In this document: piece after piece, positions 42,454 through 44,580 of the stretch
Layout: each line of letters begins with the position of its first letter
Numbering within the stretch: position 1 is the stretch's first letter
NCBI GenBank assembly: GCA_035566895.1
Contig: DATMQA010000120.1
Coordinates: 15,436 to 79,435, forward strand
Length of the DNA: 64,000 nt
Reading direction: 5' to 3'
Source: Candidatus Binatia bacterium
GTDB taxonomy: Bacteria > Verrucomicrobiota > Verrucomicrobiia > Limisphaerales > UBA8199
Notes under the pieces: generated by a model
What the model was told of the DNA's origin: nothing
Seen by the model: the letters and a program-made list of their open reading frames with translations, nothing else
Databases searched by the model: none
Translations under genes and position numbers: made by a program

Positions 42454-43473
42454 CTACTCCCGACCCACCGCCTGCAGCAGCGGGCGCAGTTCCTGCATCA
42501 GTTGGGCGAAAACTTCCAAGGAGACTTGCTGGGCGCCGTCGCTCCAGGCCTGGGCCGGATTCGGGTGCACCTCGATCAGGAGGGCGTCGGCGCCCATGGC
42601 CACGGCCCCCTTGCAGAGGGCTTTGACAAGGTCGGCGCGGCCAGCGCCCTGGCTGGGGTCGATGACAATGGGGCAGTGCGACTCGTTCTTGATGATGGGA
42701 ATGGCGGCCAAATCGAGAGTGTTGCGGGTGTAGGTTTCGAAGGTGCGGATGCCGCGCTCGCAGAACATGAGGTTGGCATTGTGGTTGGCGAGGACGTATT
42801 CGCCCGCCAGCAGCCATTCTTCGATCTTCATCGAGAGCCCGCGTTTGAGGAGAATGGGTTTGCCGGTTTTGGCGGCGGCGATGAGGAGTTGGAAGTTCTG
42901 CGCGTTGCGCGCCCCGATTTGGATGATGTCGGTGTACTCGGCGACGAGGTCGGCGTGATTCTCGGAGAGCAACTCGGTGATGACCGCCAGGCCGGTTTCT
43001 TTGCGCGCCTTGGCCAGAAGCTTGAGCCCCTTTTCGCCCAGACCCTGGAATTCATAAGGTGAGGTGCGGGGCTTGAAGGCGCCGCCGCGCAGGATGGTGG
43101 CGCCGGCGGCCTTCACGGCTTCGGCGGTTTTGAGCAACTGTTCGCTGCCCTCGACGGAGCACGGCCCGGCCATGACGTGGAATTTCCGGCCGCCGATGAG
43201 GTGTTCGCGGACCGCGACATGGGAGTTTTCCGGGTGGCCTTCGCGGCTGACGAATTTGTAACGCTTCTGCACCGGCATGACGCTCTCGACGATGTCGGGG
43301 AAGACCAGGGCCAACGTCTCGAGCGACTGGTGGGTCAGTTCGTCGCCGATAGCGCCGATGACGATGCGGGCGACACCGCGCATGACGTGAGGTTTGTAGC
43401 CTCGTTTTCGGATTTCATTCAGAACGATGGTTTCCTGTTTTTTGACGATGCCGGGTTTAAGGACAATGATCAT
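42454..43473 (-). CDS. 3-deoxy-7-phosphoheptulonate (DAHP) synthase, type I-beta with an N-terminal regulatory (ferredoxin-like/ACT-type) domain
   Basis: MIIVLKPGIVKKQETIVLNEIRKRGYKPHV... is the regulatory domain. It is followed by a KDO8PS/DAHPS TIM barrel (VMAGPCSVEG, ILRGGAFKPRTSPYEFQGLG, IQIGARNAQNF, DPSQGAGR). The ATG at 43473 is verified as CAT at 43471-43473. Confidence 0.9.
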   Translation of the reverse strand: MIIVLKPGIVKKQETIVLNEIRKRGYKPHVMRGVARIVIGAIGDELTHQSLETLALVFPDIVESVMPVQKRYKFVSREGHPENSHVAVREHLIGGRKFHVMAGPCSVEGSEQLLKTAEAVKAAGATILRGGAFKPRTSPYEFQGLGEKGLKLLAKARKETGLAVITELLSENHADLVAEYTDIIQIGARNAQNFQLLIAAAKTGKPILLKRGLSMKIEEWLLAGEYVLANHNANLMFCERGIRTFETYTRNTLDLAAIPIIKNESHCPIVIDPSQGAGRADLVKALCKGAVAMGADALLIEVHPNPAQAWSDGAQQVSLEVFAQLMQELRPLLQAVGRE

Positions 43474-43505
43474 ATTTGGTGTTTTGGTTGGCCGGAGGTC
43501 TCCAC

Positions 43506-43533
43506 AAAAAAACCGCAGGTGGGGGACCTGCGG
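43506..43533 (-). terminator. Strong intrinsic terminator 32 nt upstream of the DAHP synthase ATG
   Basis: In the minus-strand RNA: CCGCAGGU-CCCCC-ACCUGCGG (perfect 8-bp stem), followed by UUUUUUU (plus-strand A-run at 43506-43512). Confidence 0.8.
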
Positions 43534-43582
43534 CGGAGTTGGTGATGCGGGGTGTTTATGGTTGCCGCAAGCGCCAATCCGC

Positions 43583-43633
43583 CTAGCTGGTAAAGTAATA
43601 CCAGTAAGCGCTGGCAAAATTCTGACGGCTCAT
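43583..43633 (-). CDS. Candidate attenuator leader peptide MSRQNFASAYWYYFTS (16 codons, 6 aromatic)
   Basis: Codon-by-codon reading on the minus strand: ATG AGC CGT CAG AAT TTT GCC AGC GCT TAC TGG TAT TAC TTT ACC AGC TAG. It is not in the supplied ORF track because it is too short. Confidence 0.6.
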   Translation of the reverse strand: MSRQNFASAYWYYFTS

Positions 43634-43815
43634 AATCACAAGCACAGGCTATCAAAACCCGGCGGGAGGTCAAGCCCTGGTTTGCGGGTGCTTAACGCAG
43701 CAGGATCCCAAACTCGCAATCGAAACGGCTGCGCGGAGCCGGTTACTCGATTAGAATGTCAAGCAACAGAGCCCGCGGGGGCGAAAGTTTGCGGCGGCTG
43801 GGCGGGGTCTTGACG

Positions 43816-44580
43816 TTAGTCGGGTTTGGGCAGGTAATTGCGATAAGGGATATTGGGGTCGCGGGGACTTTCTCCAATGGTGGAGCTATAAGTTTCCCTC
43901 ACAATTTCAATGTCCTTTTCTTCTTCACGCTTGACGCGTTCGGGATAATGGCTCTGGCCGAGTTCCTTGGCGGAATCGTCGCGGTATTTTTGGAGGGCCT
44001 GGATTTGGCCGGAGAGACGGCAAAGGGAAGCCAGCGTACGGCAATACTTTTCGGGCTGGGTGGTGAGCTGCTGGGCGGCTTCGGGCCGGAGAAGGAATTG
44101 GACGAGGTGGGTGGCGGCGAGCTGGAGGCCGACCTCCGGGACCTGGCTGGCGTCGTGCTGGCGAAGGTAATCGGTGAGGTTGTCCTGGAGCAAGCGGAAC
44201 TGGAGGGCGTGTTCCTGCTCGAGACACCATTCTTTGAAGCCACCGCGCGTTTTCCAGTTGGAGACGTTGCGCGGGGTGACAGTGAAACCGATGTCAGAGA
44301 GGGCCGAGGCGATTTGATTATCGGGGATGTGGTTGAAGAGCATGCGATTGACCATGTCACGCGCGGATTTGGGAAGGCGGGCGATTTTACCGTTGCGGGT
44401 GAGTTTCCTTAGTACCGGCGGGAGGCTCGGGGCTGGTTGCGCGACGGCGGAGCCGTTGGAGCCGGGCGGCGGGGCGACCGGGTGCGGGAGGATTTCAATC
44501 TGCGGATTGGAGGGTTGTTCAGGGTGCGGAGGTTCTGAGCGAGGAGAGCAGGAGGCGGATGCAGAGTTTGGAGTGTCCAT
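43816..44580 (-). CDS. Hypothetical protein: Pro-rich N-terminus, possible helix-turn-helix, helical C-terminal half
   Basis: ATG ORF of 254 aa. NGKIARLPKSARDMVNRMLFNHIPDNQIASALSDIGFTVTPRNVSNWKTRG has an HTH-like pattern. I recognise no family. Confidence 0.6.
   Translation of the reverse strand: MDTPNSASASCSPRSEPPHPEQPSNPQIEILPHPVAPPPGSNGSAVAQPAPSLPPVLRKLTRNGKIARLPKSARDMVNRMLFNHIPDNQIASALSDIGFTVTPRNVSNWKTRGGFKEWCLEQEHALQFRLLQDNLTDYLRQHDASQVPEVGLQLAATHLVQFLLRPEAAQQLTTQPEKYCRTLASLCRLSGQIQALQKYRDDSAKELGQSHYPERVKREEEKDIEIVRETYSSTIGESPRDPNIPYRNYLPKPD

Follow-up and report, generated by a model that had tools for sequence, protein, structure and literature searches.

The gene aroF for 3-deoxy-D-arabino-heptulosonate-7-phosphate (DAHP) synthase of Corynebacterium glutamicum is preceded by aroR, a leader-peptide attenuator with a Phe-Tyr-Phe run. 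As summarized in PMC11802643 after Neshat et al. (2014), ribosome stalling raises transcription in this system, and the response described there is to Phe and not to Tyr. The trpL, pheL and pheM leaders of Escherichia coli follow a four-segment logic (1:2, 2:3 and 3:4 pairings) in which the regulatory codons lie in or near segment 1, the first structural gene is preceded by an intrinsic terminator and the stop codon is placed such that the terminating ribosome blocks the 2:3 pairing (PMC11802643, PMC4007540); the DAHP synthase genes of E. coli are subject to TyrR and TrpR repressor control and not to attenuation (PMC11802643). Here, we report on a 64,000-nt stretch of contig DATMQA010000120.1 from a bacterium of the Limisphaerales (Verrucomicrobiota), in the following called the window. 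On its minus strand, a short open reading frame (ORF) with a run of aromatic codons and an intrinsic terminator lie in front of a gene for DAHP synthase. From sequence comparison and modelling it is highly probable that they constitute a ribosome-mediated (leader-peptide) transcription attenuator of the trp/phe/his type that controls the synthase, and by analogy aroR-aroF is its closest precedent. The same interpretation was at the center of an earlier reading of the window made without database searches (the sequence-only reading); it is supported by the work described here, strongly so at the level of the family.

Reading the minus-strand sequence 43380-43900 confirmed the observation itself as real. 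All leader features that had been listed are present, with the leader ORF, its apex hairpin, a middle segment GGCGCUUGCGGCAA (43575-43562), the terminator and the synthase ATG all located where they had been claimed. The candidate promoter TTGACC-N16-TAGCCT (43673-43646) proved to be the one conserved throughout the family. The element and its target gene are composed as follows:

43668-43673, minus strand: -35 hexamer TTGACC; TTGAC is at least 90 % conserved over 78 aligned upstream regions
43646-43654, minus strand: extended -10 element TGATAGCCT (TGnTAnnnT), with a 16-nt spacer to the -35 hexamer; conservation reaches at least 90 % at G, T, A and the last T
43583-43639, minus strand: leader ORF of 16-18 codons from GTG 43639 or ATG 43633 to TAG 43585-43583; peptide (V/M)IMSRQNFASAYWYYFTS, then stop
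43622-43629, minus strand: segment 1, the anti-antiterminator strand GCCGUCAG, codons 4-6; partner of segment 2 in the ribosome-free minimum-energy fold
43592-43606, minus strand: regulatory codons UAC UGG UAU UAC UUU (Tyr-Trp-Tyr-Tyr-Phe) at the apex of the leader hairpin
43587-43604, minus strand: apex hairpin CUGGUA-UUACUU-UACCAG inside the aromatic codons; apex of the long 1:2 hairpin in the window subclade
43574-43583, minus strand: segment 2a GGCGGAUUGG, complementary to CCAACUCCGCC (43544-43534), the end of which is the first base (G 43534) of the terminator 5' arm
43564-43572, minus strand: segment 2b GCUUGCGGC, the antiterminator strand, a near-copy of the terminator 3' arm; pairs with 43534-43526 (-13.5 kcal/mol)
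43556-43558, minus strand: ancestral leader stop TAA, in frame past the premature TAG; relatives stop here, for example with ...WYYFTNAADWCLRRP in L201
43506-43534, minus strand: intrinsic terminator with segment 3 GCCGCAGGU (43534-43526), loop CCCCC, segment 4 ACCUGCGGU (43520-43512) and U7 to 43506
42454-43473, minus strand: type I-beta DAHP synthase of 339 aa with PF00793 and an N-terminal PF18152 ferredoxin-like regulatory domain; start ATG 43473

When read from ATG 43633 to TAG, the leader ORF encodes the peptide MSRQNFASAYWYYFTS. It is situated 110 nt upstream of the synthase ATG. A six-frame scan of the 64-kb window revealed two places with at least five aromatics in six codons, this leader ORF and a site inside a 540-aa ORF, making the leader the sole short ORF with such a run. 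The hairpin GCCGCAGG...CCTGCGG occurs once in the window. The fold of the 210-nt leader (-74.1 kcal/mol) lies 3.9 standard deviations below that of dinucleotide shuffles and its centroid structure holds both the leader hairpin and the terminator. The PF18152 match bears out the claim that the synthase carries an N-terminal regulatory domain.

The comparison with orthologs had been set beforehand as decisive. A scan of one genome per species yielded 545 relatives of the synthase, and the best 80 of these 545 (79-90 % identity) were kept, nearly all of them from metagenome-assembled genomes (MAGs) of Limisphaerales or Pedosphaera-type Verrucomicrobia. The short aromatic ORF, the antiterminator segment and the terminator are indeed conserved upstream of the orthologous DAHP synthase genes. 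The leader ORF is kept in the window and in 73 of the 80 orthologous loci, the promoter together with a start codon 6-7 nt after the -10 element in 71 of 80 (the promoter motif as such was detected in 71 of 81 sequences). The same anatomy recurs in three further metagenome loci and in two relatives with a 95 %-identical synthase, so that it is shared by about 75 of 86 orthologous Limisphaerales loci overall. The 73 leaders analyzed comprise the automatic set plus six that were placed by hand, minus two spurious ones. The family plan starts with a near-invariant TTGAC, a 16-nt spacer and TGnTAnnnT, and continues with a start codon (GTG in 58 and ATG in 12 cases) that follows the -10 hexamer after 6 nt in 47 and after 7 nt in 16 sequences. 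The ORF has 23-32 codons with an aromatic run such as QYFFYWF, GWYYFT or RYFYFYF and a nearly invariant CTTGCGGCTGCG directly 5' of the stop codon. After an A/C-rich spacer follows the terminator GCCGCAGG...CCTGCGG with a T-run at about -65 to -38 from the synthase ATG, which is retained in 69 of the 71 aligned leaders; loci L021 and L027 carry a replacement hairpin.

The element appears tied to its target gene. A profile (nhmmer) search of 1.29 Mb of DNA gave no extra copies, and strong matches were found only directly upstream of DAHP synthase. A leader-only pattern scan of metagenome contigs, aimed at other target genes and of low power, returned at least 120 stretches; among the matches listed, three are genuine leaders, all before DAHP synthase, and 117 are chance-like and lack an aromatic run or terminator. 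Among the matches listed in a protein search for distant DAHP synthases, all show at least 85 % identity, and the family is described here for the Limisphaerales.

Several signatures suggest that the leader ORF is a translated frame selected for aromaticity and they do not fit a merely U-rich RNA motif, namely aromaticity that is kept in frame, indels in steps of 3 nt, mixed synonymous codons and three types of stop codons. Aromatic residues account for 24.6 % in the leader frame as compared to 6.4 and 8.1 % in the other two frames and 5 % in the synthase protein. The best 6-codon window holds on average 4.9 aromatics versus 1.5 in shuffled ORFs, and at least four aromatics in six codons are present in 90 % of the family leaders versus 0.9 % of the shuffled leader ORFs. 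Of the 73 leaders, 70 combine Phe, Tyr and Trp. A mixture of synonymous codons is used (TTT 200, TTC 54, TAT 87, TAC 46, TGG 108) and the stop codons found at the conserved stop position are TAA (33), TAG (21) and TGA (17). The distance between the start codon and the YTGCGGY motif (segment 2) takes five values (69, 72, 75, 78 and 81 nt), all multiples of three (52/52); the distance from the start codon to segment 3, which includes the untranslated spacer, is spread over the three phases (28/28/15).

At the RNA level, the 2:3 pairing put forward by the sequence-only reading is real. In the window, CUUGCGGC pairs with GCCGCAGG at -12.3 kcal/mol as an 8-bp and at -13.5 kcal/mol as a 9-bp helix, the latter comparing with -15.2 kcal/mol for the terminator, a 9-bp GC-rich stem plus U7 that was also picked up by a terminator scan. 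Across the family, the 2:3 columns are paired in 93.3 % versus 28-55 % in slid registers. In L201, the nearest relative, the segment 2a equivalent GCGGCGGAUUGG is the main antiterminator strand. For the 1:2 pairing, the register originally proposed (UUGCC/AGCGC with GCGCU/GGCAA) can form and its best fold reaches -23.6 kcal/mol, but the favored register combines CUUGCGGC with GCCGUCAG (43629-43622) in a minimum-energy fold of -36.8 kcal/mol. RNAalifold on the 71-sequence alignment returned the terminator (nine pairs) as the only consensus structure and missed the upstream helices because indels within the ORF blur the upstream columns. The 1:2 helices were found instead by mapping per-sequence folds onto the alignment columns; the window subclade was inspected by hand, as a spacer hairpin competes there in automatic segment picking. 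The two consensus 1:2 helices are 81.9 % paired versus 29-49 % in slid registers, with double changes at seven of ten pairs, and this pairing can be considered moderately supported. In the terminator, L022 has exchanged an A-U for a G-C pair in a compensatory manner, and several sequences carry G-U variants.

The consequences of ribosome position were modelled by computing capture, that is the ensemble probability that the terminator 5' arm pairs with RNA located 20 nt or more upstream when the transcript still ends before the 3' arm. In the stalled state, the A-site is on the aromatic codons and 12 nt are masked downstream. For 71 leaders, the median capture is 0.95 with a stalled ribosome, 0.00 with the ribosome at the stop codon and 0.45 with no ribosome. 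Stalled capture exceeds at-stop capture in 70 of the 71, a figure that serves as a consistency check and not as 71 independent trials because the leaders are related. In these 70 leaders the stop codon lies later than in the window, and P at the stop is about 0-0.5. In L201, capture amounts to 0.09 with no ribosome, 0.25-0.85 in the stalled and 0.00 in the at-stop state. The window is the one exception and this is caused by its premature TAG, which is dealt with below.

What was obtained directly is the anatomy of the sequence and how well it is conserved, the signs of coding, the complementarities kept across the family and the contrasts in computed folding; from these we infer a transcription start, translation of the ORF, a response to tRNA charging and termination in vivo, which could be connected as follows. 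Transcription from the conserved sigma-70-type promoter would begin at the start codon of the short ORF or a few bases ahead of it. The transcript would form a long hairpin that has the Phe/Tyr/Trp codon run at its tip. The 5' strand of this hairpin (segment 1) consists of the early ORF, and its 3' strand (segment 2) closely repeats the 3' arm of the terminator. When aromatic aminoacyl-tRNAs are scarce, the ribosome would stall on the run and segment 1 would stay melted. Segment 2, being free, would pair with segment 3, no terminator would form and the synthase gene would be transcribed. With charged tRNAs, the ribosome would reach the stop just past segment 2 and cover segment 2 in almost all family members, and when there is no translation segment 1 would pair with segment 2. 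In either case, segments 3 and 4 would be left to form the terminator.

A number of observations weigh against this scheme. The covariation in the 1:2 helices is modest, as it is attained by 17-18 of 500 shuffles, and the sequences share a phylogenetic history. The 2:3 pairing is backed by conservation and the slid-register controls and shows no covariation, because both its strands are nearly invariant, as is the terminator core. For segment 2, this invariance extends to synonymous positions of the 'LRLR' codons (TTG CGG CTG) and thus indicates a constraint at the RNA level. Ribosome-free capture is intermediate at equilibrium (median 0.45), so that without translation, efficient termination would hinge on the 1:2 hairpin forming while transcription is under way. 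For the window copy itself the classic on/off contrast is not predicted, with capture at 0.25-0.86 in the stalled state, depending on the codon, and 1.00 at the stop. The promoter spacing would point to a leaderless start, but in the nearest relatives the leader ATG is 11 nt downstream of the -10 element, and a scan of the window revealed no other gene with a leaderless promoter-to-start geometry.

The peculiarity of the window copy deserves closer consideration. Its TAG at 43585-43583 lies eight codons before the in-frame ancestral TAA (43558-43556), is unique among the approximately 76 leaders examined and has no counterpart in the nearest relatives. Of the matches listed, the two nearest relatives (synthase 95 % identical) encode MSRQYFASTVAGWYYFTNAADWCLRRP. 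Judged from these sequences, the TAG is a derived premature stop. It had been assumed in the sequence-only reading that a ribosome arriving at UAG masks segment 2. This part of the claim is not supported: with footprints of +12 to +15 nt past the A-site codon, segment 2b is predicted to stay free and to pair with the terminator arm (P = 1.0-0.82). In-silico reversion of TAG to GCG lowers capture to 0.10 at the ancestral stop. A ribosome terminating at the premature TAG would thus leave segment 2 uncovered and termination would have to depend on the ribosome being released and the 1:2 hairpin folding again. The model therefore suggests a higher basal read-through and a smaller regulatory range for the window copy, which may be leaky.

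Known aromatic attenuators are single- or dual-input devices; trpL senses Trp and pheL senses Phe. A more far-reaching proposal, which falls short of an even chance, is that a single leaderless leader peptide senses the charging of Phe, Tyr and Trp tRNAs and acts as a three-input gate on shikimate entry across an order of the Verrucomicrobia, with the window copy as a rewired variant in which termination would proceed via ribosome release and not via masking. The strongest competitor concerns the window copy only and accepts the family element as real: the copy could be a decayed or constitutively open attenuator, and the synthase would be transcribed largely regardless of aromatics, with control exerted mainly allosterically via the N-terminal domain. 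The uniqueness of the TAG speaks for this, since the nearest relatives retain the long ORF, and so do the predicted antiterminator with the ribosome at TAG (P = 0.8-1.0 as opposed to 0.10 upon reversion), the position of the window as the sole leader of 71 in which stalled capture does not exceed at-stop capture, and the presence of PF18152 in the enzyme. On the other hand, promoter, aromatic run, segment 2, terminator and U7 tract are all intact and the very stable 1:2 hairpin (-36.8 kcal/mol) could reform after ribosome release, restoring termination, as is known for E. coli trp. The downstream ancestral frame and its TAA are intact as well, suggesting that the change to TAG is recent, and the TAG may even be an assembly error. 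Taken together, we consider decay unlikely.

A second competitor takes the small ORF as a functional aromatic-rich micropeptide, or has the U-rich apex bound by a protein or a ligand, similar to TRAP or riboswitch systems, such that stalling would not be the signal. The ends of the leader peptide indeed look conserved (NSKQV... and ...HLRLR, with 'NS..Q' and 'LRLR' as motifs), and a terminator plus antiterminator alone would also be compatible with a protein- or ligand-controlled switch. The conservation of the peptide ends is, however, accounted for by the fact that the two stretches are the RNA strands that pair with each other, and they are invariant even at synonymous positions. In the middle of the ORF, aromaticity is kept in one frame, while order, number and codons of the aromatic residues are free to vary. 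Rfam, with T-box, riboswitch and amino-acid leader families (Trp_leader, Phe_leader, His_leader and others) included, gave no match at E up to 10 in window positions 43300-43950 and none at E up to 0.1 in the whole loci of six relatives. TRAP of the Bacillus trp system needs 9-11 (G/U)AG triplets that are 2-3 nt apart and overlap the antiterminator. The region 43639-43534 holds one GAG plus the UAG stop and no spaced triplet array. A micropeptide or ligand switch is thereby rendered very improbable, and the leader-peptide attenuator remains the preferred reading.

On the far side of the promoter lies the following neighbor:

43816-44580, minus strand: hypothetical gene for a 254-aa protein with a Pro/Ser-rich N-terminus; a lineage-specific neighbor

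The 254-aa protein has no Pfam match, and none of the 80 loci encodes a homolog of it in the 3 kb that precede the synthase; all of them have a different upstream gene, and the leader keeps company with DAHP synthase. That the hairpin is a plain terminator of this gene and the aromatic ORF a chance open frame is scarcely credible: it does lie downstream on the same strand with a single weak candidate (43741-43726) in between, but a conserved promoter separates the gene from the leader, ORF frame, aromatic run and stop position are conserved, and the gene has no homolog in the 80 loci in which leader and terminator are kept, which is why the hairpin cannot be assigned to it. The weak terminator-like hairpin mentioned, CGGCUCCGCGCAGCCG followed by UUUCG (43726-43741, minus strand), is situated between the stop of the upstream gene (43816) and the leader promoter and may be that gene's own terminator.

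The start codon of the leader ORF warrants some discussion. Messenger RNAs are regarded as leaderless when transcription starts at or within about 1-5 nt of the start codon and a Shine-Dalgarno sequence is lacking. With the start codon 6-7 nt after the -10 hexamer and no Shine-Dalgarno sequence before it in the aligned upstream regions of the family, the leader ORF is probably leaderless or nearly so. The start at ATG 43633 favored by the sequence-only reading may nevertheless be used and is the one employed by the two closest relatives, which lack the GTG and start at the equivalent ATG, 11 nt after the -10 element; the family start is a GTG or ATG 6-7 nt after -10, here GTG 43639. Given the usage in these relatives, the start in the window subclade may be either codon, and 'leaderless' then stands for a 5' untranslated region of 0-6 nt.

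As regards the regulated gene, the next gene downstream is convergent and the synthase therefore appears to be monocistronic and the sole member of the regulated unit. No conserved same-strand gene was seen downstream of the synthase. A synthase start upstream of ATG 43473 was considered, as the frame is open back to TTG 43617. This codon was rejected: the Pfam domain and all 80 tblastn alignments begin at ATG 43473, and a start at TTG 43617 would place the terminator inside the gene. No Shine-Dalgarno-like motif is seen within 15 nt of the synthase ATG. A conserved block, GGAGACCTCCGGCCAACC (43486-43503, minus strand; alignment columns ~207-222), is placed after the U-tract of the terminator and before this ATG. 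Its 'CGG' and 'CCAACC' parts show 70-90 % conservation in the family. It may serve initiation as an unstructured A/C-rich stretch or act as another regulatory element.

The 80 loci include several exceptions: the leader is missing from four and non-aromatic in one, and the terminator is absent behind the leader in two and has been replaced in two others. In the latter two (L021 and L027), another hairpin, GCCCCGAA-N4-TTCGGGGC-T6, has taken the place of the terminator stem at about 60-35 nt before the synthase ATG, while GCCGCAGG is kept 14 nt upstream. An extended antiterminator helix captures the new arm, with a capture of 0.92 when stalled at the first aromatic codon and 0.05-0.10 at the last. 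L040 (2761-3003) retains promoter, GTG start and the GCCGCAGG terminator, and its ORF is devoid of an aromatic run (MKSHAAKMIWLSHVSLARAAVGTADSVRF); this leader may be degenerate or re-purposed. In L072 (280-522; ...FAGWFYY...) and L074 (1969-2211; ...FAAWFYYW...), an aromatic leader is present and neither a GCCGCAGG terminator nor a U-tract precedes the synthase. Here, another read-out such as translational control may operate, or attenuation may have been lost. L002, L036, L064 and L071 have no leader upstream of the synthase. In L002, L036 and L071, a long upstream open frame extends to about 0-150 nt from the synthase ATG, suggesting that operon fusion or rearrangement removed the attenuator. 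In several cases (L001, L009, L020, L024, L042, L047, L057, L061, L070, L073, L077 and P0001), the Verrucomicrobial locus resides in MAGs labelled Bifidobacterium/Bifidobacteriaceae, Acidoferrum, Haliangiales, Omnitrophota or Binatia; mislabelling or contamination of these bins is the probable reason.

Hardly any studies exist on gene regulation in Verrucomicrobia, and the element described here is absent from Rfam and from the literature searched. We found no paper linking Verrucomicrobia with attenuators or leader peptides, and broad comparative surveys name neither aro leaders nor Verrucomicrobia. The supposed novelty for the Planctomycetes-Verrucomicrobia-Chlamydiae (PVC) superphylum thus holds for Verrucomicrobia within the literature searched but not for the superphylum as a whole, as attenuators of trp operons have already been predicted in Chlamydia (PMC3937554). 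What is gained is a defined cis-regulatory family of about 75 examples that allows automatic annotation in Limisphaerales genomes and MAGs. DAHP synthase in this order would be under two levels of control, transcription attenuation and allostery through the N-terminal domain, and leaderless translation is suggested for Verrucomicrobia. In addition, the premature stop in the window, the terminator swap in L021/L027, the terminator-less L072/L074 and the non-aromatic L040 offer natural variants from which design rules of attenuators may be derived.

Compared with aroR-aroF of C. glutamicum, the Limisphaerales element is alike in that a leader-peptide attenuator with aromatic regulatory codons is placed on DAHP synthase. 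It differs in that aroR belongs to Actinobacteria and has a run without Trp, while the Limisphaerales leaders combine Phe, Tyr and Trp in 70 of 73 cases. The likeness is one of mechanism, drawn from the published description of aroR, and does not imply common descent. With E. coli trpL, pheL and pheM, the element shares the four-segment logic, the position of the terminator and the placement of the stop codon. In contrast to these leaders, it matches no Rfam model (Trp_leader, Phe_leader), it starts without a Shine-Dalgarno sequence 6-7 nt after -10 and is thus probably leaderless, its regulatory codons are found at the hairpin apex and not within segment 1, its run encodes three different amino acids and its target is the entry enzyme of the common pathway. 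Leaderless leader peptides are documented for Deinococcus deserti (PMC4007540) and polycysteine leaderless short ORFs for mycobacteria (bioRxiv 10.1101/834739); in both, the transcript starts at or one base before the AUG/GUG of a regulatory short ORF upstream of amino-acid or tRNA-synthetase genes. Transcription starts have been mapped in those cases, whereas the start in Limisphaerales is deduced from promoter spacing, and phyla and target genes differ. The predicted trpL attenuators of Chlamydia, also a member of the PVC superphylum (PMC3937554), resemble the present element in being predicted leader-peptide attenuators of a PVC lineage that act on an aromatic (Trp) pathway. They have Trp-only hotspots in peptides of 40-59 aa, are located upstream of trp salvage genes and are unrelated to DAHP synthase. 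The combination of phylum and gene had not been catalogued before and the mechanism is a textbook one, so that the gain lies in breadth and annotation and not in a new principle. What sets the Limisphaerales element apart is the codon run for three amino acids, the probably leaderless ORF and, in the window, the unique premature stop.

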